Positions 2,228 to 20,098 are shown, counted from the first letter of the stretch. The stretch: 32,000 nt of DNA from Nitrosococcus oceani ATCC 19707 (GCF_000012805.1 NC_007484.1:3330001-3362000), one strand, 5' to 3'. Made by a program: numbers and translations. Notes: a model not told the origin generated them from the letters alone.

Positions 2228-2298
2228 ACCTAAGCGGTGATTCGGAGTACCCTTTTTTTTATATGCGGTCAAACGTCATCTGCAGCGATTTGTTAGGT
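2228..2298 (-). mobile_element. degenerate attC-like site
   Basis: Right arm TCTGCAGC-GATTT-GTTAGGT (2279-2298) matches the right arms of other attCs here (GCTGCAGT-GAATT-GTTATAC; ...GATTT-GTTAGGC). Left box ACCTAAG (2228-2234) has G instead of the final C, and arm pairing is poor. Overlaps the higA 3' end. Confidence 0.3.
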
Positions 2299-2743
2299 CC
2301 GCCCCAAAAAACACCGCCGGGCTTACGCCGAAACGGCCTGATAGCTTGGCAATATGCTCTTTAGTAAGCGACCGCTGCCCAGACAAAATCATAGACACCA
2401 AAGACTTAGAGCCTATTTCTTCACGCAGCCCAGATGCTCCCAGCGCATGCTGCTCCATAAGCAATCTTAATGCTGAAACACCAGGATCAATACCTTCAGC
2501 CTCCTTGTGGAACTGAACCATCTTGTCCTGTTTTGATTCATACTCCTCAACAGCGCCAGCCAGTATCTTGATGAGGTCATTCAACGGATCTAATCTAGAA
2601 TCTTCCGCTTCGGTCATGAGTTCTTCAATCAGATCCAAGGTTTTCTGATAGTCACGCTTGTTGCGGATATGGATAAAGCGATGGGCTGCTTGGGAAAAAT
2701 GAGAAAAACTATCAGCCACTTTCCGATATTCGGTAGTAAGCAT
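2276..2743 (-). CDS. higA: HigA family antitoxin (XRE-type HTH)
   Basis: 155 aa. The C-terminal IGSKSLVSMILSGQRSLTKEHIAKLSGRFGVSPAVFF closely resembles E. coli HigA (IGSKSMVSRVLSGKRKLTLEHAKKLATRFGISPALF). The start overlaps the higB stop by 1 nt. Confidence 0.85.
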   Translation of the reverse strand: MLTTEYRKVADSFSHFSQAAHRFIHIRNKRDYQKTLDLIEELMTEAEDSRLDPLNDLIKILAGAVEEYESKQDKMVQFHKEAEGIDPGVSALRLLMEQHALGASGLREEIGSKSLVSMILSGQRSLTKEHIAKLSGRFGVSPAVFFGADLTNRCR

Positions 2744-3054
2744 TATAATTCTCCTTTGAGGTATCTTGAGTTCAACCTGTCGTATTCGGCATGCGTCACG
2801 ATATGCTTCACGTAGACGTGTTGATGTACAAACTGAATCGCAGCGATTAGGCGTAAATTATTGCCACCTATATCTATGGCCCACCAACGCTTCTTATGCT
2901 TAAAGTTGTCCAATGATGGGAAAACAATTCTAAGCTCAGATGGGCTGGAAAAACTGCCCCGCCGTAAGACGTTGTACGTATCCATAATCGACTGTCGGTC
3001 ATTCGGATATTTCTTAACAGCTTCGCTAAAAGGTTGCTTAGATATGACGTGCAC
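2743..3054 (-). CDS. higB: HigB family type II toxin (mRNA interferase)
   Basis: 103 aa, GTG start. The MHVISKQPF...YPN...W...F...F...IGGNNLRLIAAIQF...VYVKHIVTHAEYDR pattern is typical of HigB_toxin family proteins. Toxin-first order with higA. Confidence 0.85.
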   Translation of the reverse strand: MHVISKQPFSEAVKKYPNDRQSIMDTYNVLRRGSFSSPSELRIVFPSLDNFKHKKRWWAIDIGGNNLRLIAAIQFVHQHVYVKHIVTHAEYDRLNSRYLKGEL

Positions 3055-3132: not shown

Positions 3133-3313
3133 GCCTAACGAGTCGAAGTTGAGCGGCACCCCCGACTTGGGCAAATGAGGGTTCATTCCTTCTTCGGAGT
3201 TAGTAGTCTTTTGTTGTGTAATAACGTTTAAAAGAAGCTGATTTTAGACCCTCATTTGCCCAACCAAGGGGGCGAAGCCGCGAAGCGGTGTCCGCTCCAA
3301 CGATTTGTTAGGC
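3133..3313 (-). mobile_element. long integron attC site (181 bp) with extended inner hairpin
   Basis: GCCTAAC at 3133-3139 and GTTAGGC at 3307-3313. Outer arms GAGTCGAAGTTGAGCGGCACC / GGTGTCCGCTCCAACGATTT are complementary with bulges. Inner arms CTTGGGCAAATGAGGGT (3165-3181) / ACCCTCATTTGCCCAAC (3249-3265). Confidence 0.65.
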
Positions 3314-4239: not shown

Positions 4240-4357
4240 GCCTAACGGAGCGAATCCGCGAAGCGGTGTCCACTCCAACGGGAGATAGGCGGTGCAAAGC
4301 GCGGAAGGAACCAAACCGCGTAGCGGTTTGGCAGTCGGCTGGAGCGCCTAGTTAGAG
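4240..4357 (-). mobile_element. composite / degenerate attC region
   Basis: GCCTAAC at 4240-4246 and GTTAGAG at 4351-4357. 4252-4290 (GAATCCGCGAAGCGGTGTCCACTCCAACGGGAGATAGGC) is a near copy of the right arm of the 3133-3313 attC, with its core mutated to GATAGGC. Perfect 9-bp hairpin CCAAACCGC-GTA-GCGGTTTGG at 4311-4331. Confidence 0.45.
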
Positions 4358-5136: not shown

Positions 5137-5604
5137 ATGCGGCTTTGGTCATTACATCCTCAATATCTTGATGCTAAAGGCTTGGTCGCCCTATGGCGAG
5201 AAGCGCTACTGGCGCAAGCTGTTTTGGCAGGTCTAACTCGTGGCTATAAGCATCATCCACAACTTGTTCGTTTTAAAGAAACTGAGCGGCCCAGAGGTTA
5301 TATTGCCTCTTACTTACAGGCCGTACTTGTTGAGGCTTCCCGTCGCAGCTATTGCTTCAATGGAGAGAAAATCGGCCAACTTGGTTCCGTTGAAGCGCTG
5401 CTAGTCACGAAGGGCCAGCTAAATTATGAGTGGGTACACTTAAAGAATAAACTCCAATTCCGCGATCCCTCTTGGCTATTCCAGTTTCAAAGCGTTACGA
5501 TGCCTAAACCGCACCCGCTGTTCCAGATAGTGGCGGGTCCCGTTGCGAAGTGGGAAGCTATCTCTGCCCAACAGAGCACTCAATCTGGCCGCCTTAACCG
5601 CTAG
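5137..5604 (+). CDS. pyrimidine dimer DNA glycosylase / endonuclease V family protein
   Basis: MRLWSLHPQYLDAKGLVALWREALLAQAVL...GYKHHPQLVRF is the characteristic N-terminus of the Pyr_excise family, as I remember it. Confidence 0.75.
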   Translation: MRLWSLHPQYLDAKGLVALWREALLAQAVLAGLTRGYKHHPQLVRFKETERPRGYIASYLQAVLVEASRRSYCFNGEKIGQLGSVEALLVTKGQLNYEWVHLKNKLQFRDPSWLFQFQSVTMPKPHPLFQIVAGPVAKWEAISAQQSTQSGRLNR

Positions 5605-5668
5605 GGCAGTTAAGGTTACTTCCACGTCCTTGGGCCGCTCCGGCAGCAAGTTAGCTTAGGCGTTAGGC
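5592..5668. mobile_element. possible attC relic
   Basis: Ends AGTTAGCT-TAGGC-GTTAGGC (core at 5662-5668), like the other right arms. The left side has only CCTTAAC (5592-5598) and poor arm complementarity. Confidence 0.2.
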
Positions 5669-7900: not shown

Positions 7901-8857
7901 CTACTTAGATAACTTTACTGGTGAAACAAAGCCGGGAGGTTTAACGGCAAGCACAGAACATTGCAACTGTTCGAGAATGGCTTCAGCGGTATTCCCAATG
8001 AGCAAACCCGCGATACCCGTCCGGGCGACTGTGCCCATCACCACCAAATCAGCATGCAGCTGCTTTGCTATGTCGGGTATAATGGTGGCGGCGGTCCCTC
8101 GACGCATATGAAATTCAGGGGAGAGATAGTCGCTAGCATCTCTGCCGACGCGCTCTATTAACTGTCGCCGCAGTCGGTTATAGGCGTTTTCATGACTTGA
8201 CCGCACACCCTCGACGTAGGCAATGCTTGCCTTCTGAGGGTCATCGGCCCATGTGCGTAACATCGCCTCGGCCGGGGCATCCCAAACATGAACCACATGC
8301 AGCGCGGCAAAATCAGAAAACGCGAGAGAACTAGATAAATCAAGTATCTGCTGGTTGAGGTTCTGCTCTATTGCATCTGGCATATCCGGATTGAAATCGA
8401 CAGCGGCGAGTATATGCTCGTACTTCGATTTTTCCTCCGTACGTGTTAACCATACCGGACAAGGACAATTGCGCAGTAACTGCATGTCGTCGCTGCCAAA
8501 CAGCCGTTCAATAAAGCTCGGATTCTCAGCCGGTTTGATCAGTAGATCATGGTCGTTGCGTAAAATAGCCCGAATAATTTCGAGAAATGTTCTGCCCTCC
8601 AGTACATCCAGCCGGATACGGACCCGTTTCCTGTAAGGCTCGATCAGCGCCTCGAGTTTTTTGCGGCGCTCGTTCACCGTGGCGGTTTGCAGTTCATTGG
8701 ATATCGAACCGCTGCGCAATATACCGATACCTGGAACCACATCAATGGCGGTTAAGTCCGCCTGGTTGTTTTCCGCTAGGGACACGGCTCGCATAATCGA
8801 AGCGTCCTGGGCCACAGCGCCTTCAGATACGTAAAGAATATTTTTGAATAAGTTCAT
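7901..8857 (-). CDS. tandem universal stress protein (UspA/UspE-like)
   Basis: 318 aa with two USP domains. C-terminal DLVVMGTVARTGIAGLLIGNTAE...CSVLAVKP is the classic USP ATP-binding motif region. Confidence 0.85.
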   Translation of the reverse strand: MNLFKNILYVSEGAVAQDASIMRAVSLAENNQADLTAIDVVPGIGILRSGSISNELQTATVNERRKKLEALIEPYRKRVRIRLDVLEGRTFLEIIRAILRNDHDLLIKPAENPSFIERLFGSDDMQLLRNCPCPVWLTRTEEKSKYEHILAAVDFNPDMPDAIEQNLNQQILDLSSSLAFSDFAALHVVHVWDAPAEAMLRTWADDPQKASIAYVEGVRSSHENAYNRLRRQLIERVGRDASDYLSPEFHMRRGTAATIIPDIAKQLHADLVVMGTVARTGIAGLLIGNTAEAILEQLQCSVLAVKPPGFVSPVKLSK

Positions 8858-8925
8858 CCTGATTGACCTCTCTATTCTAAAGAACCGGTGTTGTATTCGG
8901 TGATATCTGTAACCGATAAAGCATC

Positions 8926-10632
8926 TTACGGTTTATTGGTCTCATCTTCTAGAATAGGCTGGTAGCCTCGATCTCTCACGCCCTGAACCATCTCGTCGAT
9001 CTCATCGGACGATACATTGAGCATCTCCATCGCGGTGACACTAAGGCGCAAACTCAACTCAATCGTTTCCGGATAAGCGCGAGCAGCACCGGCAGCAAGC
9101 AGGCGTGTACTGGTTTCGAGATCCCGCGCCCGTACGATCACCGGCACCTGCGGACAGGTTCTATTTATATACGACATCACACCTAATGCGGTGCCGGGGC
9201 TGTCAACGGCGACTACGACTAGAGAAGCCCTTTCCACATGAATGGAAGACAGCAATCCCGGATCGGCAATGTCGCCGAACCAGACCGCATGCCCATCCGC
9301 CCGCCCCTGGGCTACCCGCTTCGGATCGGTGTCAAAAGCCACAAAGGGAACGCCGCATGAGTGCAATAGAACGGCGATGGTGTGGCCCACTCGCCCATAG
9401 CTGCCGATCACCACTTGTTTTTCCGGGGCCTCCTGTAATTCCGCTGTATCATGGGTTGTTGCCCGAGGCGTTTTGACTAACCACTTCGCTATAGTGCCAT
9501 TGAAACGGATCAGCAGAGCGCCAGCAATCATCGACAGAAGCACGGAGGTGATGGCAATTTGACCCAGTTGCATGGCAATCACGCCGGAATCGAGCGCGAT
9601 AGCGATGAGAGCGAGCCCAAATTCACCACCCACACTCACCATCAGTCCGGTTTGCCACGCTACCCGGGTATCGATCCCTGTCCCACGCACCATAGCGGCA
9701 ACAATCAACGTCTTGCTCGTCACAATAAGCAACGCGCCCAGCACGGTCCAGTGCCATATGGGGAGTATCGCCGCCGGGCTGAAGCGCATACCAATGCCGA
9801 TAAAAAACAGCCCCAATAATACGTCCCGAAATGGACGAATACTTGACTCTACCTGGTGGCGAAACTCCGTTTCGCCCAGCATCATCCCGGCAAGAAAGCC
9901 GCCGAATGCCAGCGACAAACCCAGGCTATTGGTGATCCAAGCGGCAAGCAAAGCAACCAGCAGCACAGCCAAGGTGAAAATTTCAACCGATCTGCGCTCG
10001 GAAACCACATGAAACAACGGGCCCAGCAACCAGCGCCCGGCAAAAAAGACAAGCACGAAGGCAAGCACGGCTTTTGCAAGGGCCAAGCCCAGCGTTCCCG
10101 CCAGCACATCCGCTGTGACCGACGTACCCAGCACAGGGATGGCCACAAGAAATGGAACGGCCGTAACATCTTGAAAAACCGACATTGCAAGCCCAAGACG
10201 GCCATGCTGAGTATTCTCCTCGCCCCGCTCGGTGAGCAGGCTGGCAATAATTATTGTGGAAGATTGAGCAAAAACGGCGCCGAACACGAACGCGGCGGCA
10301 ACCGGTAATCCTGCGAGCCACACTACCAACCCAACCACCAGGGTGGTGAACGCTACCTGCCCGGTACCCAGCCCAAGAACCTGGTGTCGCAAGGCGTGTA
10401 TTTGGGGCAGAGAGAAATTAAGGCCTATGGTAAACAGCAGGAAAACAACACCGAATTCGGCAAACGCTTCCAGCTCCGGCATGGCAACTACCGGTCCGAT
10501 CGTGTACGGTCCAAGCACTATCCCTACCAACAAATATCCCAGGCTGGTCGGGGTATGAAAGCGCTGAAAAATAACCACGACAGTGATCGCCGTGGCCAAA
10601 AGCAGGATAATTTGGATGAGATATTCCATCAT
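8926..10632 (-). CDS. CPA2 monovalent cation:proton antiporter (KefB/KefC-like) with C-terminal RCK/TrkA-N domain
   Basis: About 12 TM helices, then VVIGSYGRVGHTIAVLL (a Rossmann GxGxxG-like motif) typical of Kef-type systems. Confidence 0.85.
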   Translation of the reverse strand: MMEYLIQIILLLATAITVVVIFQRFHTPTSLGYLLVGIVLGPYTIGPVVAMPELEAFAEFGVVFLLFTIGLNFSLPQIHALRHQVLGLGTGQVAFTTLVVGLVVWLAGLPVAAAFVFGAVFAQSSTIIIASLLTERGEENTQHGRLGLAMSVFQDVTAVPFLVAIPVLGTSVTADVLAGTLGLALAKAVLAFVLVFFAGRWLLGPLFHVVSERRSVEIFTLAVLLVALLAAWITNSLGLSLAFGGFLAGMMLGETEFRHQVESSIRPFRDVLLGLFFIGIGMRFSPAAILPIWHWTVLGALLIVTSKTLIVAAMVRGTGIDTRVAWQTGLMVSVGGEFGLALIAIALDSGVIAMQLGQIAITSVLLSMIAGALLIRFNGTIAKWLVKTPRATTHDTAELQEAPEKQVVIGSYGRVGHTIAVLLHSCGVPFVAFDTDPKRVAQGRADGHAVWFGDIADPGLLSSIHVERASLVVVAVDSPGTALGVMSYINRTCPQVPVIVRARDLETSTRLLAAGAARAYPETIELSLRLSVTAMEMLNVSSDEIDEMVQGVRDRGYQPILEDETNKP

Positions 10633-10650
10633 AATATTTTTTATTCACCG

Positions 10651-10712
10651 GTAAAACTTAGCATCGCATTCAGCAGCGCATGTAGTGCATCCACTTGGAT
10701 AGATTGTTAGTC
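10651..10712. mobile_element. possible attC relic
   Basis: GTAAAAC ... ATTCAGCAGCGC ... ACTTGGAT-AGATT-GTTAGTC. The right arm resembles GCTTGGAC-GAATG-GTTAGGC (14967-14988), and TCAGCAGCGC is shared with the 633-693 attC. Boxes are imperfect and pairing is weak. Confidence 0.3.
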
Positions 10713-10845
10713 AAGGGATAAAAATATGCGATCCTATAGGCAACGAAAGGATCTCGTATAACCCCTTCACAAATCGCAGATACAATATATCAGATAAGAC
10801 CTGGGCCTTACTGGAATCACAGGTAGGGGTGTTTTATCCGCTAGC

Positions 10846-11150
10846 ATGATAAGGGCGTTCGGGAAAGATTATTAGGATTTCAGATTGACGGGTCTGATTA
10901 TAAACGGCTGATGATTGCCGCTATTCCAGCCCGTAAAAACTACATCCTTCAGCATGAGTATAATAAAAATTTATACGAATTACAGCATCTACTGGAAAAC
11001 GCTTTCCTTCATCTCAAACGCTGATCCAGGATTTATTACCACATGATACGCCAGAAACATCGCTTCCTTTCTCGCTACCGTAAGAATCAACCGCATCCTT
11101 CTTTGAGCCAGTATCTCCTGACTTCACCATTTAGTCCGACGCCTGATTTA
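10846..11150 (+). pseudogene. IS5-family (IS427/IS1031-like group) transposase C-terminal remnant
   Basis: The plus frame reads DKGVRERLLGFQIDGSDYKRLMIAAIPARKNYILQHEYNKNLYELQHLLENAFLHLKR*, then after a frameshift ...YARNIASFLATVRINRILL. Compare the usual ADKGYD...VIP.R.N......Y..R..IEN.F..LK.WR.IATRY.KN..SFLA ending. Confidence 0.6.
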
Positions 11151-11540
11151 AGCCTGCAATGGACGCTGATGGACAACCGTGTCTGTGTACTGGTGAAACG
11201 AGACCACTTTTCCATCCTCAAACTTCCAGACATGGGCGAACGGGGCTTTGAAGCTTTTACCCGTAGCCTTGTAGGAGCCACTGTACTCGCCAAGTGCTAC
11301 GACGGTGGAACCGTCTGCCACAAACTCCCTAGGCACTGCAGCGAAGCCATTCCACTCTCCGCAGAGCTTCATAAAGACATTCTCCAAGACTGCATCCGGT
11401 CCGATAAAGACGCCGCCGTAAGGCCCGCCTTCAGCCTCGGTCCAATGCATGTCTGGAGAAAATACTGCCAGAACCGCAGGGATGTCACCAATAGCAAATG
11501 CCTTGTACAAGCTACGTATAATATCTAAATTGTTGCTCAT
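11148..11540 (-). CDS. SnoaL-like / NTF2-fold (ketosteroid isomerase-like) protein
   Basis: 130 aa. IIRSLYKAFAIGDIPAVLAVFSPDMHWTEAEG...ALGEYSGSYKATGKSFKAPFAHVWKFEDGKVVSFHQYTD is the typical SnoaL_2 pattern. Confidence 0.8.
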   Translation of the reverse strand: MSNNLDIIRSLYKAFAIGDIPAVLAVFSPDMHWTEAEGGPYGGVFIGPDAVLENVFMKLCGEWNGFAAVPREFVADGSTVVALGEYSGSYKATGKSFKAPFAHVWKFEDGKVVSFHQYTDTVVHQRPLQA

Positions 11541-11569
11541 AAAAATCTCCAGTTGAGAGCAGGACCATC

Positions 11570-11656
11570 GCGCAACCTAGCGCTGAAATAGGCGGCGTAC
11601 GTAAGCACGCTTGGGGAGGCTAAAGGGCTGGAACATACTTGATTGACTGCTTATGT
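11570..11656 (-). mobile_element. attC-like site (good right arm, weak left arm)
   Basis: Right arm ACTTGATT-GACTG-CTTATGT (11637-11656), with the ynfA stop codon inside the core box exactly as in the 14206-14212 site. Left box GCGCAAC at 11570-11576. Poor stem. Confidence 0.3.
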
Positions 11657-11983
11657 GGTGCGAGGCGCGAACATGATAATTGCCATACCTAAAAGCGCTA
11701 TCGCAGATCCCACTAAATCCCATGTGGTTGGACGAATTCCATTGACTACCCATAGCCACAAGATCGCCATGACAATATAAACCCCACCATAGGCTGCATA
11801 GACCCTGCCCGCTGCGGTTGGATGCAGCGACAGCAACCATACGAAAGCCACCAAGCTCAAAGCGCAGGGTACCAAAAGCCAGATTGTTTTGTCTTCCCGA
11901 AGCCAAAGATATGCCAAATAGCAGCCGGCAATTTCCGCTAATGCGGTGATGAGAAACAAGCCAACAGTCTTCAACTCAGGCAA
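11651..11983 (-). CDS. ynfA: YnfA family (UPF0060) small membrane protein
   Basis: [57 protein letters not shown] is very close to E. coli YnfA ([57 protein letters not shown]). Confidence 0.9.
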
Positions 11984-12007
11984 AAGAATCTACTCCTTAT
12001 CGATACC

Positions 12008-12070
12008 ACATAACGACCAAGCTAACCGGCGCCGCGTTCATCGGCGTCCGAGTTGGACATTGCTTTGGAG
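12008..12070 (-). mobile_element. integron attC site (63 bp, one degenerate box)
   Basis: ACATAAC-GACCAA-GCTAACC-(23 nt with stem CGGCGCCG/CGGCGTCCG)-AGTTGGAC-ATTGC-TTTGGAG. The left box is identical to that of the 12479 site. The right box is degenerate. Confidence 0.55.
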
Positions 12071-12197
12071 ACTGACGGAAATCACTCGAAAGGCTTAATG
12101 GATTCAACCGCTAAATTAATATACCAAAGTCTGACTAATATAGATGAGGGAGGTGAGATAGCTCAACCTTAAAAATGGCACTAACAAAGTCTTTGGT

Positions 12198-12460
12198 CTA
12201 CGTTCCAATACAGGTCCAAAAAAATCCAACCAGAAAATCGCATTTATCAAGAAATTGTTTGTTGATTATTGCTTGGGACGAATAACCCATGTCCGGAGAG
12301 GAATGGGATTCCCAGCCAGTTGGGAGTAGCACTACCTTTCCATTGGAAGAATGAACCACGTTCCATTCGGCAATTATCTCTCGAGCAATCGCGCGCTCCG
12401 ATGCAACCTCACCGGGGGCGACGGGATCATCACCTTAAAAATGGTTGCTTCGTAGCTCAT
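12198..12460 (-). pseudogene. degraded cassette ORF (frameshift plus premature stop), family unassigned
   Basis: ATG at 12460 with GGGAG upstream: MSYEATIFKVMIPSP. After a 1-nt shift in the C-run at 12414-12418 it reads PGEVASERAIAREIIAEWNVVHSSNGKVVLLPTGWESHSSPDMGYSSQAIINKQFLDKCDFLVGFFWTCIGT*, with the stop at 12198-12200. Confidence 0.5.
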
Positions 12461-12478
12461 GCGCGACACTCCCGGTAA

Positions 12479-12543
12479 ACATAACGCTTGAACTCAGCGG
12501 TGGCCCGTCAGGGCTTGCCGTCCGCTGCAGTGAATTGTTATAC
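12479..12543 (-). mobile_element. integron attC site (65 bp)
   Basis: ACATAAC-GCTTGA-ACTCAGC-(25 nt)-GCTGCAGT-GAATT-GTTATAC. rc(ACTCAGC)=GCTGAGT versus GCTGCAGT, i.e. one extra base in the right arm. Begins 18 nt 3' of the 12561 stop. Confidence 0.8.
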
Positions 12544-12560
12544 GGAAAACTCTTCACGTG

Positions 12561-14093
12561 TTACTCGGCTGCGAGACCAGCATATCGAATACCAGCAAGT
12601 TCCGCTATGGGCTTTTTCCACGAAGTAATGTCATCTGTATTGAAGTCGTTCAGCTTGGTATGGCCACACGCTCGGGCCATAACCTTCATGAGTTCGGTTG
12701 AGGCACTAAAGAATCGGGCAAGACGTTCAGCAGCGACATCAACATTGAGCCGTGCGCGCAGCTCCTCTTTCTGTGTGGCAATGCCCGTCGGGCAGTTATT
12801 TGTATGGCATATTCGGGCACCCACGCAACCAATGGCTTGTATTGCGCTATTGGCTACGGCAATGCCGTCTGCCCCTAAACACAGCGCTTTGATGAAATCA
12901 TCAGGTGTACGCAATCCACCCGTAATGATTAAGGTAACATCCTCACGACCTACGGCATGCAAGTGTCGACGAGCACGTGCGAGCGCCGGAATCGTGGGAA
13001 CGGCTATGTTGTCACGAAACAGAAGTGGGGCCGCACCCGTACCGCCGCCTCTTCCATCTAAGATAATGTAATCAGCAGAAGCCTCCAGGGCAAAATCGAT
13101 GTCTTTTTCAATGTGCTGGGCCGACATCTTAAAACCGATCGGAATCCCGCCAGACACCTCACGCACATGGTCGGCAAATTCCTTGAAATCATGCGGTGCC
13201 TTGAGATTCGGGAAAATGGATGGGGACACCGCATCTTTCCCGACGGGTATACCGCGCACTGAGGCAATGTCCTCGCTGACCTTGACCCCCGGCAGATGCC
13301 CACCGGTTCCAGTTTTTGCGGCCTGACCAGCCTTGAAATGAAACGCTTGAATACGTGTCAAAAGGGACTCGCTATAGCCAAACTTAGCTGATGCGAGCTC
13401 AAACATGTAGCGTGAATTGGCTTGTTGTTCTGCGGGCAGCATACCACCCTCGCCAGAAGCAATACCGGTCCCGGCCAACTCCGCACCACGCGCCAACGCA
13501 GTTTTGGCCTCTTCCGATAGGGCGCCGAAACTCATGTCTGATACAAAAAGGGGTAGCGCAAGATGCAATGGCCTTTTTGCATTCGGGCCGATGGTGAGCC
13601 CTGTATCCACGGGAGCATCCTCTTGCAGAGGCATACGAGCAAGTTGTGCTGTAAGGATTTGTATATCCTCCCAGCCCGGCAGACGGGAGCGCGGCACGCC
13701 CATCGCATCCATTTTGCCTTGCTGTCCGTAGTGTTTTAGGCCGTGTTTAGCCAATGAGTGGATAAACTCCACCGTCGGCTCTTCTGGCGTATTGACTGGA
13801 GCCGGAGACTCCGCTTTTGGTCTCCTATCGGGTATTTCCAGTTCCGTTTCATCCGGCGGCAAGGTTTTGTGCGTCCCATCACAATACGGAGCATTACCTG
13901 TTTGTTTGCACATGCACAGCCATTCGCTGGCCCCTTCCTCAACCATGAACGCAACCGGTTTGATACCGGTCCCGACATGCGAGCCATCACAAAACGGTTG
14001 TTTCTTCGATCTCCCACAAGCACACCAGTAGTATTCGCCCGGCTCCGAATTCAGCTGCTTCGGAATACGATCCGCTATCTTTGCTTTCGCCAT
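12561..14093 (-). CDS. FMN-binding glutamate synthase family protein with two N-terminal CDGSH iron-sulfur domains
   Basis: Start moved to ATG 14093 (AGGTGGA SD 5 nt upstream). CACGRSKKQPFCDGSH and CMCKQTGNAPYCDGTH are CDGSH motifs. The body carries GltS FMN-domain hallmarks (GEGGMLP, KTGTGGHLPG, LDGRGGGTGAAP, CHTNNCPTGIATQ). Confidence 0.85.
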   Translation of the reverse strand: MAKAKIADRIPKQLNSEPGEYYWCACGRSKKQPFCDGSHVGTGIKPVAFMVEEGASEWLCMCKQTGNAPYCDGTHKTLPPDETELEIPDRRPKAESPAPVNTPEEPTVEFIHSLAKHGLKHYGQQGKMDAMGVPRSRLPGWEDIQILTAQLARMPLQEDAPVDTGLTIGPNAKRPLHLALPLFVSDMSFGALSEEAKTALARGAELAGTGIASGEGGMLPAEQQANSRYMFELASAKFGYSESLLTRIQAFHFKAGQAAKTGTGGHLPGVKVSEDIASVRGIPVGKDAVSPSIFPNLKAPHDFKEFADHVREVSGGIPIGFKMSAQHIEKDIDFALEASADYIILDGRGGGTGAAPLLFRDNIAVPTIPALARARRHLHAVGREDVTLIITGGLRTPDDFIKALCLGADGIAVANSAIQAIGCVGARICHTNNCPTGIATQKEELRARLNVDVAAERLARFFSASTELMKVMARACGHTKLNDFNTDDITSWKKPIAELAGIRYAGLAAE

Positions 14094-14124
14094 TATTTCC
14101 ACCTGTATGTCTTGAATATTTTCC

Positions 14125-14212
14125 CGTATAACACTTCGCATCGCCGGCAGCAAAAAGCGGAGTAACAAAGGAGCTCCGCTTTTTGCTGTCCGAGTGCATA
14201 TGATTGTTATAC
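14125..14212 (-). mobile_element. integron attC site (88 bp)
   Basis: GTATAAC (14125-14131) ... GTTATAC (14206-14212). 16-bp near-perfect stem GCAGCAAAAAGCGGAG/CTCCGCTTTTTGCTGT. The right arm is 2 nt longer than the left. The stop codon of the 14207-14920 ORF lies inside the core box. Confidence 0.8.
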
Positions 14213-14920
14213 ATATGCTTTTAATCTTGTTTCAAATACTGAAAGAACAGAATCAAAATAATTTTCTACCAGACTTTCTAAAGCCACGAGCTGGCCCTTA
14301 AAGTCTTGTTTTTTCTCGGCAACGAAATCATCCGTTTTCTTTTTGAACAGATATCTGTAGCGCTCAAAATCATCATCTTTTTCCGCGAGGAGGTAATAAG
14401 AACCAAGCTGGTCAAGATCCTTTTCTGAGTAAGTACCTTGATGCGCGACCGTATTTCTGTGATAACGGAACGGCCCAGTAAACTTATCGAGTTCAGTTAG
14501 AGATTTAGCGACAGGCGTTCCTTTTACGTGGGCATTTTTTATTATGGAATCGTTATTGCATTGCCGTTCGGGAAGGCCAAGTTGGTAAATGACGTTCGCA
14601 AGGCGAAGGCACCGATCAAAAACTGATGTAAAGCGTAGATAATAATTTTCAATCCCATAGACTACATAGTCATATCGATTCATTTTATCGGGTGAACTAT
14701 TCGACCTATACCCTGACAGCATCTCTATAGAAAAGTGTAGCTGATCTATACAGGCAACAACATTACTGATGGATAGAAATGCCTCTATCCCGTAGCTTTC
14801 TTCCCTCGTAGACAATGGATCATTCGCTGGGTCGTCAGGATTGCACTTAGTTATGTATTCCCTGCAAACGGCTACCGCCGATTTCAGAAGAGCATGGTCT
14901 TTGAGTTGTGTGATCTTCAT
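14207..14920 (-). CDS. HEPN-domain protein (Rx4H motif), putative RNase / abortive-infection-type effector
   Basis: 237 aa, all-helical-looking. R155-N-T-V-A-H160 (nt 14441-14458, checked against the DNA) fits the HEPN Rx4-6H motif. The overall look resembles Cthe_2314-type HEPN proteins (from memory). The single ORF fills one cassette. Confidence 0.6.
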   Translation of the reverse strand: MKITQLKDHALLKSAVAVCREYITKCNPDDPANDPLSTREESYGIEAFLSISNVVACIDQLHFSIEMLSGYRSNSSPDKMNRYDYVVYGIENYYLRFTSVFDRCLRLANVIYQLGLPERQCNNDSIIKNAHVKGTPVAKSLTELDKFTGPFRYHRNTVAHQGTYSEKDLDQLGSYYLLAEKDDDFERYRYLFKKKTDDFVAEKKQDFKGQLVALESLVENYFDSVLSVFETRLKAYV

Positions 14921-14929
14921 CTATTTACC

Positions 14930-14988
14930 GTATAACACTTGAGTTAAGCGGCCACTGTCACGCGGATCGCTTGGACGAATGGTTAGGC
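14930..14988 (-). mobile_element. integron attC site (59 bp)
   Basis: GTATAAC-ACTTGA-GTTAAGC-(19 nt)-GCTTGGAC-GAATG-GTTAGGC. This has the classic 59-base-element size and layout. The extra base in the right-arm 8-mer implies that the plus strand is the bottom strand. Confidence 0.8.
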
Positions 14989-15720
14989 GGCAATACCACC
15001 ACCGTTTCCTTGGGCCAACATACTGCGACAGCCGGAACCCGGCAACTGCTAAGCTGATGGTTGGCCTGCGCCGGGAAGCGAATCCCGTATTCGAGAGGCT
15101 GGACGCTGCTGCGAATAGTCCGCTGACAAAAGTTACTCCTGCAAAAGAGAAGCCTGCGGCCCAAAAGCTGCCCCGCAAGTCCAGGCACAAAGCCGAACGA
15201 GGCAAAAAAGCTTACGCCGCAAGCAGCAGGGAATTGGACCCGCAGGGATTAAGATTATACAAAACTCCCGATCATTCTCATCCCAGTTGCCCGAAGCGTA
15301 GTTCTGCTGCCACAGAAAAGTATGCTGAACATTGGCCTTCCAACCCTTCTCGTACATTGAATGATTATTGAAGATCTCCAAGAGCTGGCTGTTACGGTTC
15401 TCGAATGAGGAATCATCCAAGCTGGCGAGAAACGATTTCCCGGCAAGTAACTTCTGTTCGATTCCATTGGCCGTTCTCGGCATTGAGATGTGGCCGTTTC
15501 CAGAATAGTTGGCAAGACACCTCCCAGGTGCAAGAATGCATCACGAGGCTTATTATCAGACTTGATTCTGGCGGGCCAATTAACAACCATCGGGTTACGC
15601 GTACCGCCAGGATGAGAGGCGCGACCTCTGCCTCGCCCATTAGAAGGGGGTATTACCCGCCCAGAGCCGAATAGGTAGGCTCCGGTTTCAGGCGCTTGAA
15701 GAACTTTAGGGAAAGCTGCT
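14986..15720 (-). pseudogene. arylsulfatase-family pseudogene fragment (both ends missing, several frameshifts)
   Basis: Minus-strand pieces: ...ASHPGGTRNPMVVNWPARIKSDNKPRDAFLHLGGVLPTILETA / MPRTANGIEQKLLAGKSFLASLDDSS...LLEIFNNHSMYEKGWKA / VLYNLNPCGSNSLLLAA / ...MLAQGNGGGIAA*. Compare sulfatase SH.GGTRN..VVHWP...H.ID..PTILE..G...P..VNG..Q.P..G.S...GNR.IY..GWKA...W.LYNL. The track ORFs at 14921-15590 are its frames. Confidence 0.7.
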
Positions 15721-16097
15721 CGCTAGGAATCCTGAAAGATCACGCCGGCATCTCCTTCAAAACGGGGATCAGCATACGGTAGCGCCGTCTATCCTGTGGC
15801 AAAGAGGTCTAGAGTCCAGCTTATCCTAGGAAAAAACGCTCGGCACAAGGAACACTGCCATAAAAGCTGGGCAAAGCATAAATATAATTGCCTTTATTAT
15901 TGTCATTCTATCAGTACCTATGGATAAAATTAGGGACGGTATGGCACGAAGGGAAGTCACAAAGCTGTTTTTCCTCTCCAAAAGATTTGATGGGCGTTCT
16001 GATTATCTTTCGGATATTCCAATCCTATCCTGACGAATCGGCGCAGGGCTTTCCTGCCCCCTCGCACTAATACTTCGAAAATTTTGTCGAGGCCCTT

Positions 16098-17111
16098 ATG
16101 CTCTTCTCCTATGACTGTAAAAAAACAATTCAAATGGCGGATTACTCAAAAGCTTATAAAATATCTGTCGCACCGATGATGGAATGGACCGATCGGCACT
16201 GCCGTTATTTTCTCCGCCTGATTTCCCATCGTGCCCTGCTCTATACCGAAATGGTCACTGCGGGAGCGCTCATTCATGGGAATCGAGCTCGTTTTCTAGC
16301 CTATCATAAGTCTGAGCATCCCTTGGCTTTGCAACTGGGGGGAAGTCATCCCGAAGAATTAGCCCTTTGTGCCCAGATGGCCGAGGACTATGGGTTTGAT
16401 GAGGTCAACCTTAATGTGGGCTGTCCCAGCAACCGGGTACAGTCTGGGCGCTTCGGAGCCTGTCTGATGGCGGAGCCTGAGCTGGTTGCCGAATGCGTTG
16501 CCGCCATGGCTCAAGCCACCCAAATCCCGGTAACGGTCAAGACCCGGATTGGAATCGATGAGCAGGACTCCTACGAAGCGTTAGACCACTTCATCAGCAC
16601 GGTAGCGCAAGCAGGCTGCCGAACTTTTATCATCCATGCCCGCAAAGCTTGGCTGCAAGGCTTGAGCCCCAAGGAAAACCGAGAAAAACCTCCCTTACGC
16701 TATGATGTGGTGCGGACCATCAAGCAGGATTTTCCTCAACTGACAGTAATCATCAACGGGGGCATTACCACTCTGGAGGAGATTTCTGAGCACTTAGAAT
16801 TATTGGATGGCGTCATGATTGGCCGGGCGGCCTACCATAACCCTTATCTACTTGCCCAAGTGGACCGGAATTTCTATGGAGATTTTCATCCTTTTCTCAC
16901 CCGGCATGAGATTATTGAGGCTTTCTTGCCCTATGTGGCAGAGCAATTGGTCCAAGGCGTGTATTTGAACCATATGACCCGCCATATTCTAGGGTTGTTC
17001 CAAGGCCAACCAGGGGCACGGGCCTGGCGCCGCCATTTAAGCGAAAATGCTCATCGGCCTGGCGCGGGGATAGAGATCATCCGGGAAGCCTTACGGCAAA
17101 TGCCGTGTTAG
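16098..17111 (+). CDS. dusA: tRNA-dihydrouridine(20/20a) synthase DusA
   Basis: [22 protein letters not shown]...LYTEMV...LQLGGS.P...[18 protein letters not shown]...[18 protein letters not shown] are DusA hallmarks. The true start may be ATG 16134 (MADYSKAYK...). Confidence 0.9.
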
Positions 17112-17945: not shown

Positions 17946-18479
17946 TTATGGCGGCGAGGATATTCGCGCTACGATGTCCCGTATTAGACTGGAATCGGTA
18001 TCGGTCCGGTCTTTTTGGCGGATAATGGAAATCTGTCCCCGCTGCTCGCAGATCACAAATTGAACCTCCCTTAGATCCTCAACGCCGCGCTGGCGGAGCA
18101 GCCCATGCAAGTCGTTGAGCGTCAATCCGCATTGCCGCAGCTCACCTTTGAGTACCTGCCCATGGGCAATAAGCACCCGTGGCGGAGGGTCCACCAGATC
18201 GGCAATGCTGGGAAAGTAGCGCAACTGGGTGATAATCCGGTGGGCAAGGAGCAAGGTAACCAAGGTAACTGCGCCGGCCAGGTAGCTGGTAGTGCTGGCA
18301 TTCGGTACGCGCCCAACAATAGCGCCAACGGCAACGGCGGCGACGAAATCAAAGGGCGACATTTCAATGAGGGTACGGCGTTCGCCAAGCCGAAAGCCGA
18401 TGACAGCAGTCAGATAAAGCAAAAGCGCTTTTAGGGACACCCAGCCTAGTTCCCCGCTTTCTCCTATCAGGTGGTCCAT
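17946..18479 (-). CDS. DUF421 (YetF-like) membrane protein
   Basis: Start moved to ATG 18479 (AGAGGA SD). RLGERRTLIEMSPFDFVAAVAVGAIVG plus the C-terminal soluble part LKGELRQCGLTLNDLHGLLRQRGVEDLREVQFVICEQRGQISI is typical of DUF421. Confidence 0.75.
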   Translation of the reverse strand: MDHLIGESGELGWVSLKALLLYLTAVIGFRLGERRTLIEMSPFDFVAAVAVGAIVGRVPNASTTSYLAGAVTLVTLLLAHRIITQLRYFPSIADLVDPPPRVLIAHGQVLKGELRQCGLTLNDLHGLLRQRGVEDLREVQFVICEQRGQISIIRQKDRTDTDSSLIRDIVARISSPP

Positions 18480-19081
18480 AATCAGTCCTCTGCTATATCC
18501 GTTATATATTACTTGCTGCTGTAATAATAAAACCTTCTCAAGTCTCCATAACAGACGGGATAAACTATCCGCGGCATGTACTGAGCCGAGACAAGAAATT
18601 CGATAATTTATTTGATCATAGCGCATCTTAGGTTATATTGCTTTTGCTGCTCAGGTCGGCTAGGGCTGTTTTGGCTACTTGGACAAATACTTGTGGCTGA
18701 TGCTCAATTCTGCAGAATACTTTTTGTGGCTTTTTTCCGTTCTTATAACGCCATACCGCCATCTCGATCCTCAGGAGAGCCTAAGCACAGATAGAGAAAA
18801 ATTATTACGATTTCACGCTGATTGCTTTCTTTTATTCCTGCCGCTAAAAATTTCACTGATTCAATAGCATATCCCTTACAGACTCGTTTGTGGATGCTTA
18901 TCGGGCAAAGTCAGGAGTTTTTTCATATTTTCCTTGTGCTTGGTGATGAGCTGTAAGCTCTGTTTAAACAGCAGATTGAACGGGGGCTAAGAAATATATC
19001 CTTATTTTTGGAGCACTTTCCAAACAGCGCTGAGATTATCTCTATAACATGCTGACGATTATTGACAGAGGCGTAGTGTTT

Positions 19082-20098
19082 TTAAGTTCGGGTATCACTT
19101 TGCTGCTTAAGCCAAGGCCAGCCCGTTTCTTGCGTCAGCGCCAGCCAGAGGGCGCGGCGCTCTGCTAATTCGGCCAAATTGAGTTGAAACTGCTGCTGAG
19201 CAATAACTGGAATGCCGTGTTCAGCTAAAGTAGAAAGATTCGGTGAAGGGGGAATTTTCTGAACCTGCTTGATTGAATAAGTACGCACCATAGCCTGCAG
19301 GCAGGTCGATAGTAACTGACGAGTCGGATGAAGTAAGCTGGGCTGGAGGAAATATTGCTGCCTCTGTTTAAGGCCGTAGATCACAATAGTCAGCGCTTCA
19401 TCCAAAGCCGCTAAGCGCAGGCTGATTACCTCAGCGGGGTTAGAGGTGTGGAAATAGTTCAGCACTGGGTAGGTGACGTAGTGCTGCTTCAAAATGGCGA
19501 GTTCAGGAATCAGCATAATCAAGTACTGTTCCAAGGGTTGCCAATTTTGACCATTCCAAGTATTAGCGAGGATAGCCTGTGGCGTTGCGCCGAGGCTAAA
19601 CAGCGTCAGTGCCACCATGCGCTTGTGTGCCGTCGCCTGCACGATGGGGACTAAATAGGTAATAGAAAAAGTCACCAGAAACAATCCACTCAGGGAGGCT
19701 ATCGCAGTCAGTACCTGCCAGAGGGCACCTTGGGGAGCATAATCGCCTGTGCCGAGGGTAAAAATAGTAAAGCCGGTAAAATAAATGTGGGCCCAGAAAT
19801 CGGCGGGCAGGTGTGTTTGGCTATGGAGCACTGCCTCAGCACTGCTCCAAAATATCAGCAACCAACCAAGCCACAGAAGGCAGATCCAGACAGCGACTAC
19901 TGCTAATACAATCTGAATGCCAAAAAATGACCGCAAACAATGTGATATACGGAGACCGCGCCGGCGTAGAAGACGCCAGAGCAGTTGTGCGATGCGGTTA
20001 GTCAAGGGCCCCCCTGATTCGCCTAAGGTAGTCCAAAAAATTTCAAAGACCAAGAAGAAAAGTATCACCAGGCCTAACAGAAGACTGAGCCAATCCAT
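19082..20098 (-). CDS. potassium-channel-like protein (2-TM pore, TLGTGD filter variant) with large C-terminal cytoplasmic domain
   Basis: YFTGFTIFTLGTGDYAP is a pore helix plus selectivity-filter-like T-x-G-x-G-D, flanked by TM helices. About 170 aa of uncharacterised C-terminal domain. Confidence 0.75.
   Translation of the reverse strand: MDWLSLLLGLVILFFLVFEIFWTTLGESGGPLTNRIAQLLWRLLRRRGLRISHCLRSFFGIQIVLAVVAVWICLLWLGWLLIFWSSAEAVLHSQTHLPADFWAHIYFTGFTIFTLGTGDYAPQGALWQVLTAIASLSGLFLVTFSITYLVPIVQATAHKRMVALTLFSLGATPQAILANTWNGQNWQPLEQYLIMLIPELAILKQHYVTYPVLNYFHTSNPAEVISLRLAALDEALTIVIYGLKQRQQYFLQPSLLHPTRQLLSTCLQAMVRTYSIKQVQKIPPSPNLSTLAEHGIPVIAQQQFQLNLAELAERRALWLALTQETGWPWLKQQSDTRT

Follow-up and report, generated by a model that had tools for sequence, protein, structure and literature searches.

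Background

The closest described counterpart of the locus treated here is the CALIN, a cluster of attC sites lacking an integron integrase (Cury et al. 2016, PMC4889954). The locus lies on the chromosome of Nitrosococcus oceani ATCC 19707, of which a stretch of 32,000 nucleotides was analysed (GCF_000012805.1, NC_007484.1:3330001-3362000; this whole stretch is called the window, and positions are counted from its first letter). The part under study is 10651-14988, in which a first-pass annotation made from the sequence alone had seen a block of gene cassettes bounded by attC sites. These are genuine attC-bounded cassettes, and they form an ordinary part of one partly decayed array without integrase that lies between aroC (beyond the window start) and dusA and ends at 14988. 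The array is a CALIN, since no integrase gene (intI) was found in the window or in 7.7 kb beyond its low-coordinate end. We hold it to be very probable that the locus is one chromosomal cassette array, about 17 kb long, which has lost its integrase, and that the block is the part of it that lay nearest the integrase.

With the described CALINs the array shares two or more tandem attC sites in the same orientation, each after an open reading frame (ORF), the lack of an intI nearby, the partial degradation of its attC sites and the chromosomal location. It differs in being fairly long, in occurring in two species, in containing an inverted segment with ABC-transporter and Pyr_excise genes and a plus-strand attC, and in carrying a two-gene Kef-Usp cassette. 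To count as a CALIN, a locus needs two or more attC sites and must have no intI closer than 4 kb; here three significant attC sites lie in the block and at least six more in the rest of the array, and there is no intI from aroC to dusA nor in the remaining 16 kb of the window. In a complete integron an intI adjoins the first cassette, and none adjoins it here.

The attC sites of class 1 integron cassettes (blaOXA-10, cmlA1, aadB, aadA1) have the same architecture as those of the block: an R'' box RYYYAAC, a 5-nt spacer, an L'' box with an extra base, a variable stem, an L' box, a 6-nt spacer and an R' box with GTT. Unlike theirs, however, the R' boxes are GTTATAC or GTTATGT, with T instead of a purine at the fifth position, the cargo is not antibiotic resistance genes, and IntI1, attI1 and Pc are all lacking. 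Sedentary chromosomal integrons, such as the Vibrio cholerae superintegron, are likewise chromosomal and vertically inherited across species, with toxin-antitoxin genes (here HigBA and BrnT) and many cassettes of unknown or accessory function. They are recognised by a resident intI and by homogeneous, species-specific attC repeats, whereas the present array has no integrase, is much shorter, and has heterogeneous sites of 44-103 bp with a mean pairwise identity of 55% (maximum 69%). Finally, attC clusters have been described in phage genomes (Ghaly et al. 2023, PMC9892861), and the HEPN cassette of the window recurs with an 83% identical attC in a prophage mini-array, although the window itself has no phage genes.

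No mention of integrons in N. oceani was found in the literature searched, to which the N. oceani genome paper did not belong, and the supplements of the IntegronFinder papers that were examined have no Nitrosococcus entry. The array leaves the understanding of integrons unchanged; what it adds is the record of a cassette array without integrase in a marine chemolithoautotroph that oxidises ammonia.

The attC sites of the block

Two covariance models, R1 and R2, were built in house from foreign attC sites only, and the window is in neither training set. R1 was made from 14 class 1 sites cut after annotated cassette genes (aadA1, aadA2, aadB, cmlA1, qacL, estX, psp, yciI, aacA4, blaOXA-10, arr-3, dfrA27, blaIMP-8 and an orf) in arrays on nine plasmids; the canonical R''/R' and L''/L' pairs were annotated, and the variable stems of three sites were trimmed because MAFFT misaligned the right arms of long sites. 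R2 was made from 25 sites found by R1 in plasmids and in the arrays of other organisms, including chromosomal arrays in metagenome-assembled genomes (MAGs), with long sites of 80-114 nt included. The control DNA came to about 79 kb, and the noise ceiling was 11.8 bits in its first part (window 16-32 kb) and 11.1 bits in its second (63 kb of dusA loci from three sister species). The sites of the block are the following.

14930-14988, minus, 59 bp: attC nearest dusA; R1 36.3 bits (E 1e-6), R2 21.7 bits (E 2e-3)
14126-14212, minus, 87 bp: attC of the HEPN cassette; R1 12.3 bits (E 0.7), R2 23.1 bits (E 8e-4; the R2 training set includes long-stem sites)
12479-12543, minus, 65 bp: attC of the CDGSH-GltS cassette; R1 51.7 bits (E 3e-10), R2 53.8 bits (E 1e-11); top match of the window in both models
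12008-12058, minus: partly degenerate attC, marginal; R1 8.2 bits, R2 13.8 bits; E 0.19 in the whole window, 0.009 in a 1.5 kb region
11570-11656, minus: vestigial attC; no match with R1 or R2, no stable fold, L boxes gone
10656-10712, minus: decayed attC directly upstream of the Kef-Usp cassette; R1 9.9 bits, R2 8.6 bits, which is noise level

Three sites (12479, 14930 and 14126) were detected on the minus strand by both models, with 52-54, 22-36 and 12-23 bits respectively against no more than 12 bits in the controls, where no attC-like sites were found. These are the three which the first-pass annotation had called well-formed and had proposed to check with a covariance model; they pass with the two in-house models, and only one start moved, from 14125 to 14126. 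Rfam at its gathering thresholds gave no match in the window. A regular expression for the heptamers was discarded as an attC finder, its 44 candidates being mostly noise.

Four features by which attC sites are known are present: inverted heptamers of the type RYYYAAC/GTTRRRY, the L''/L' architecture, a significant model score and a tandem position 3' of ORFs. The sites of the block are all on the minus strand, 0-17 bp past minus-strand stop codons, and are spaced 0.4-1.7 kb apart (tandem sites being those less than 4 kb apart). Their R''/R' pairs are GCCTAAC/GTTATAC at 14930, GTATAAC/GTTATAC at 14126 and GTATAAC/GTTATGT at 12479, with AAC and GTT invariant; the T at the fifth position of R' is a minor departure from GTTRRRY and is common to the homologous cassettes of two other contigs (L130 and L131, see below). 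In the covariance-model alignments the spacers are of 5 and 6 nt, and L'' has one extra base in both 12479 (ACT-G-CAGC) and 14930 (GTC-C-AAGC).

The 12479 site, GTATAAC-AATTC-ACTGCAGC...GCTGAGT-TCAAGC-GTTATGT, is 80% identical to the attC of blaOXA-10, the GCCCTGACGGGCC loop included, and it has the spacers of aadA1, AATTC and TCAAGC, unchanged. A likeness to the aadA-type 59-base element had been put forward in the first-pass annotation, and it is correct: the aadA1 element matched 1962 plasmids at a threshold of at least 99% identity, the matches being 100% identical. The 14930 site, GCCTAAC-CATTC-GTCCAAGC...GCTTAAC-TCAAGT-GTTATAC, is 80% identical to the attC of aadB, with identical R'', L'' and L' boxes, and is assigned to an upstream degraded cassette that holds a sulfatase remnant.

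The 14126 site has perfect R''/R' boxes and a long stem (DNA fold of -26 kcal/mol, z -7). It is 83% identical (72 of 87 positions, ungapped) to the attC after the Kef-Usp pair in a Binatia MAG (L047), and also 83% identical to the attC of the HEPN cassette in a P2-like prophage contig (L130). This 87-nt family was found in three unrelated contigs, and the four members compared share one stem in which six pairs have changed in compensation, together with three single-base bulges that are conserved and confined to the R''-L'' arm. The strand polarity of attC sites comes from this kind of asymmetry, in which the R''-L'' arm alone has extrahelical bases.

The remaining sites are decayed to different degrees. 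The one at 12008, 25 bp upstream of the ynfA start, keeps R' GTTATGT and the L boxes and has a weak R'' (GTCCAAC or lost); it had been described as partly degenerate and ending at 12070, and it remains so within the shorter limits given above. Its orthologue in Nitrosococcus watsonii is likewise degenerate. The relic previously placed at 10651-10712 reads GACTAAC-AATCT-ATCCAAGT...GCTAAGT from 10656 onwards, and stands as a decayed attC: at noise level in N. oceani, it has an N. watsonii orthologue (contig L132, 11595-11651) which scores 22.5 bits (E 7.5e-4) against 8.6 bits here. In the same position upstream of Kef there is an intact attC in three other genomes (L047, L031 and L028), and the junction GCTAAGT-TTTACCGGTGAAT of the relic parallels GTTAGGC-TTTCACGACGATC of other genomes. 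An orphan R'-type heptamer, GTTATAC on the minus strand at 10756-10762, lies 44 bp upstream of this relic. The relic at 11570 was upheld in part only. Its R''-like heptamer ACATAAG, within which lies the ynfA stop codon (11651-11653), agrees with the 5' TTATGT of its own cassette at 6/7 positions. The R' box had been misassigned to GTTGCGC; the remnant is probably GCTAGGT downstream of ynfA, where N. watsonii has the canonical GTTAGGT.

The cassettes of the block

The genes between these sites, all of them on the minus strand, are listed here.

11148-11540, minus: SnoaL_2/DUF4440-like gene, 130 aa; Pfam E 1e-17; 92% identical in N. watsonii
11651-11983, minus: ynfA (UPF0060), 110 aa; Pfam E 2e-39, NCBIfam YnfA above cutoff; 94% identical in N. 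watsonii
12059-12478, minus: degraded cassette; longest ORF at most 69 aa, no Pfam match; only short fragments left in N. watsonii
12561-14093, minus: fusion of two CDGSH iron-sulfur domains with a glutamate-synthase FMN (GltS) domain, 510 aa; Pfam zf-CDGSH twice and Glu_synthase, E 2e-90
14207-14920, minus: HEPN_Cthe2314 gene, 237 aa; Pfam PF18730, E 4e-13

The labels SnoaL-like, ynfA, CDGSH-GltS and HEPN, as well as that of a degraded ORF, had been given without database searches; Pfam confirms the first four (SnoaL_2, YnfA, CDGSH-GltS and HEPN_Cthe2314), and the degraded cassette has no ORF above 69 aa. The proteins of the window are identical to those of N. oceani GCA_000155655.1 (DS995301.1). 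It had also been observed that the stop codons of ynfA and of the HEPN gene lie inside the core box, which is the case (ACATAAG and GTATAAC, respectively).

The most informative unit is the HEPN cassette (14126-14935), which begins with TTATAC, followed after 9 nt by the ATG, and has its stop codon (14207-14209) within its R'' GTATAAC. Its GC content is 41% against 48% in the core. The 5' TTATAC pairs 7/7 with the R'' of its own attC and not with the upstream R'' GCCTAAC. The homologues of the protein form a small family of 62 clusters, mostly of 237 aa. In a genome of 6.4 Mb (L131, 4033-10613) the HEPN gene is the second cassette of a complete integron and is flanked by attC sites; the IntI of this integron is 46% identical to IntI1 over its full length and is followed by seven attC matches. 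Later cassettes of the same integron include Imm70 and DUF6985. In the P2-like prophage contig (L130, 5911-7950) a mini-array of three attC sites sits between the tail and lysis genes, in the order attC, HEPN_Cthe2314, attC (87 nt, 43.5 bits), M48 peptidase, attC. The closest homologue, 89% identical, occurs on many contigs (L126-L129, for instance L126 3936-12553) between transposases of the IS110 and Tn3 families, with its attC cut after the left arm.

When the window and the contigs L130, L131 and L126 are compared, the sequence upstream of the HEPN cassette is unrelated and the homology starts at G|TTATACGGTAAATAGATG in all four. The upstream attC is entirely different among the window, L130 and L131, and no recognisable attC lies upstream in L126. 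At the other end the homology stops at the G of the cassette's own attC in the window and in L130. Such breaks of homology at G|TT, together with the complementarity of the 5' end and R'', are the signatures that IntI recombination at G|TT would leave. On the sequence evidence the HEPN cassette is a recurrent, circulating one, present in a complete integron, in a prophage and in the array of N. oceani.

HEPN proteins are commonly RNase toxins or defence components. The presence of this one in the moron position of a prophage and in integrons fits a toxin or defence role without being proof of it. No PADLOC family matches any of the cassette proteins. It can be suggested, tentatively and at rather long odds, that the 237-aa HEPN_Cthe2314 protein is a self-contained anti-phage module (an abortive-infection RNase) or a phage-borne counter-defence module, that it spreads as a cassette through integrons, prophage mini-arrays, transposon contexts and integrase-less arrays, and that N. 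oceani gained it after the split from N. watsonii. As no PADLOC family covers the protein, this would, if true, make it a new integron-borne defence gene.

The neighbouring CDGSH-GltS cassette (12479-14131) is, with 1653 bp, large for a cassette. Its protein is 93% identical in N. watsonii and has full-length homologues in several metagenomic contigs (63-75% identity). The cargo of the block had been called unusual; this holds only mildly, HEPN_Cthe2314 being a recurrent cassette and the CDGSH-GltS fusion occurring outside arrays as well.

One array from aroC to dusA

The flanks of the block on its two sides are these.

7901-8857, minus: tandem Usp; Pfam; pairs with Kef as a two-gene cassette (7901-10632)
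8926-10632, minus: Kef-like CPA2 antiporter; Pfam; array-side flank of the block
15255-15640, minus: C-terminal remnant of a sulfatase gene, frameshifted; six-frame translation, phmmer to PDB 6uss residues 351-412 (E 2e-4)
16098-17111, plus: dusA; flank beyond the array end

The cassettes of 10651-14988 had been regarded as a second block, separate from a first one at lower coordinates. This separation was given up, because the Kef-Usp pair that lies between the two blocks is a cassette elsewhere and the two blocks are hence one array. When a collection of genomes was scanned with the Kef protein, the 80 best loci came from very diverse bacteria, with amino acid identities of 68-85% and no Nitrosococcus among them. 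The Kef-Usp pair occurs in Beta- and Gammaproteobacteria, Binatia, Chlorobiota and Acidobacteria, an adjacent Usp being found in at least 24 of the 80 Kef loci (42 tblastn matches, 25 of which were listed). In the Binatia MAG (L047, 9884-12871) the order is attC, Kef, Usp, attC, and attC sites are also found near the pair in L025, L028 (318-3334), L031 (1966-5638), L049 and L064. Judging by this arrangement, several unrelated MAGs carry Kef and Usp as one integron cassette of two genes. Beyond the window start MliC, DUF2283, ceramidase and BrnT cassettes follow, with attC matches, up to aroC; since the array continues in this way, its whole length is about 17 kb, with at least 15 attC-like sites.

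At the other end, an integrase or attI would be expected beside 14988. A tblastn search with IntI1 (E up to 10) gave no match over the whole 32 kb window, nor did Pfam find a Phage_integrase domain in the larger ORFs of the window that were scanned (about 50 aa and up). Between 14988 and dusA there is neither attI nor intI, and the expected position of the integrase is filled by the sulfatase remnant and dusA. The earlier observation that the array stops at 14988 against a pseudogene, with no integrase at the expected end, is consequently borne out. The ORFs of 14989-16097 have no Pfam or NCBIfam match, nor have those of the degraded cassette, and the identity of the sulfatase comes from a single phmmer match in PDB.

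The array in Nitrosococcus watsonii

The same array is carried by N. watsonii (CP002086.1, contig L132), as revealed by a search with YnfA, at 41-60 kb from its dusA. The shared part comprises CDGSH-GltS, ynfA, SnoaL, Kef-Usp, ABC, Pyr_excise, HigBA and CBAH, with 87-95% nucleotide identity. The flanks of dusA alone had suggested that N. watsonii lacks the array, which the YnfA search overturned: within 10 kb of dusA neither cassette genes nor attC sites are found in N. watsonii, Nitrosococcus wardiae or Nitrosococcus halophilus, and for the two last species this result applies to the dusA neighbourhood covered and does not amount to absence from their genomes. Its synteny in the two species marks the array as old and as vertically inherited.

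The homology between the species sets in at the 5' boundary of the CDGSH-GltS cassette, to within 2 nt. The sequence upstream of this boundary is the HEPN cassette in N. oceani; in N. watsonii it consists of another attC, a methyltransferase-like gene and other cassettes with no fewer than seven additional attC sites. The N. watsonii array extends at least 7 kb further upstream (L132 1-8301), with attC matches at 1180, 2763, 4317, 5315, 5785, 6044 and 6939, a BrnT/CopG pair, a reverse transcriptase, an IS630 transposase and a DUF768 gene; a glycosyltransferase gene closes this stretch, and no intI is visible there. By deletion, N. watsonii has lost the 12479 attC and most of the degraded cassette.

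The cassette proteins are 89-97% identical in amino acid sequence between the two species, against 86% for DusA and 84% for DUF2201. The sharing of the array with N. watsonii offers a small natural experiment on what becomes of cassettes after the loss of the integrase: the attC sites erode by point mutation and deletion, and the cassette ORFs are conserved at least as well as neighbouring core genes. For catalogues of cassettes, the locus adds a widely travelled two-gene Kef-Usp cassette and a HEPN_Cthe2314 cassette whose G|TT junctions are exact in three settings: an integron, a prophage and the present array.

Origin and present state of the array

The models, the homology to known attC sites and the comparison of junctions agree in supporting what the first-pass annotation had proposed as its central point, a minus-oriented array of integron cassettes. 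In the history that we favour, each unit would originally have been a promoterless circular cassette with one ORF (occasionally two) and an attC. An integron integrase would have inserted it by recombining the folded bottom strand of attC at G|TT of R', and its traces are the three intact attC sites (12479, 14126 and 14930), the 5' ends complementary to their own R'' and the G|TT positions at which homology breaks off. The greater part of the array, starting with CDGSH-GltS, is older than the split of N. oceani and N. watsonii and is now inherited vertically. Left without an integrase, its attC sites decay by point mutation and deletion, as at 12008, 11570 and 10656. The HEPN cassette, in which the two species differ, is a circulating cassette. 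We infer that the cassettes are immobile at present and would be expressed from internal or read-through promoters, for which a promoter-like site on the minus strand at 15254-15281 is one candidate.

A number of observations weigh against this history. No recombination was observed directly. The absence of intI holds for the window and for 7.7 kb past its low-coordinate end, the rest of the N. oceani genome not having been searched. Over this region the window agrees at 99.98-100% with each of fifteen N. oceani contigs of independent origin (exactly 100% with 13 of them), so that no cassette polymorphism is seen within the species. The difference between the species at the CDGSH-GltS/ynfA junction is accounted for by ordinary deletions; it is no clean attC x attC exchange. 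None of the 18 metagenomic loci at which a CDGSH-GltS homologue lies has an attC, and no other cassette-borne copy was found. The short attC sites fold no better than shuffled sequences (z -1 to +0.3 for 12479 and 14930); since the folding of single DNA sequences cannot separate short attC sites from shuffled ones, energy alone was dropped as a test. Lastly, neither the 11570 relic nor the region 10713-11147 can be shown to be attC-derived. This region, about 430 bp of non-coding DNA downstream of SnoaL with no recognisable attC, may be what is left of one or two more cassettes.

The array might still be an active platform on which cassettes are shuffled by an integrase acting in trans, encoded elsewhere in the N. 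oceani genome or by a visiting element. Three attC sites of the block and at least five of the first block are structurally intact, the proximal cassettes of the two species differ at a cassette boundary, and the HEPN cassette circulates in active integrons, all of which would agree with continuing activity. Yet the fifteen contigs are 99.98-100% identical across the array, several attC sites are decayed in both species, and neither the 32 kb window nor the 7.7 kb that precede its start contain an intI; a genome-wide intI survey of 2008 does not mention Nitrosococcus, which is weak evidence. Shuffling in trans is thus improbable in our judgement.

Slightly less credit is given to an arrival or relocation of the array as cargo of another mobile element, either an island targeting dusA or an integron borne on a transposon, its place beside dusA then reflecting that element. 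The dusA flanks differ in all four Nitrosococcus species examined, the N. watsonii array stands 41-60 kb from dusA, the attC sites are heterogeneous as in mobile integrons, and the end of the array bears the mark of a rearrangement in the truncated sulfatase gene. What speaks against such a transport is that neither the interval from 14989 to dusA nor the rest of the window yielded a tyrosine recombinase, a transposase or terminal repeats, and that the array is shared with N. watsonii at the divergence typical of the two species and is hence old.

The notion that the palindromes are ordinary hairpins, intrinsic terminators or REP-like elements, which resemble attC by chance among ordinary core genes is effectively refuted already: the sites do lie directly past stop codons as terminators do, the 14126 site is a strong hairpin and the genes are, as the first-pass annotation had allowed in its own objection, syntenic and conserved in N. 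watsonii, but no T-run follows any attC, the three sites are absent from the terminator-like matches and are neither GC-rich hairpins with a T-run nor members of a dispersed repeat family, the short sites are weak hairpins and yet reach as much as 54 bits when scored with the models of foreign attC, identities of 80-83% link the sites to the attC of blaOXA-10, aadB and MAG or prophage cassettes, the homology breaks at G|TT, and the 79 kb of control DNA have no such sites.

Other features of the locus

Around dusA the gene content varies in the four Nitrosococcus species (window 17946-20098; L107 11175-12875; L106 8617-9774). YetF and an ion-channel gene lie downstream in N. oceani, an AIPR abortive-infection gene is found in N. 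watsonii and an IS605 OrfB/TnpB gene upstream in N. halophilus, so that the dusA locus looks like a hotspot of insertion. A palindrome of 54 bp, GGCCAAC...GTTGGCC, at 15013-15066 is placed 24 bp past the last attC and scores about 8.5 bits on both strands, which is noise level.

In the first block, attC matches of 15-50 bits are found at 223-282, 633-693, 1887-1958, 3133-3313 and 4240-4357, all on the minus strand; the match at 3133-3313 is 181 nt long and probably represents two adjoining attC sites. A HigB/HigA toxin-antitoxin cassette lies at 2276-3054. Further on, the segment 5137-7600 of this minus-oriented array is inverted, with the Pyr_excise and ABC-transporter genes on the plus strand. 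A plus-strand attC at 5566-5668 (31-37 bits) overlaps the end of Pyr_excise, and the inverted segment is kept in N. watsonii (L132 14489-16973).

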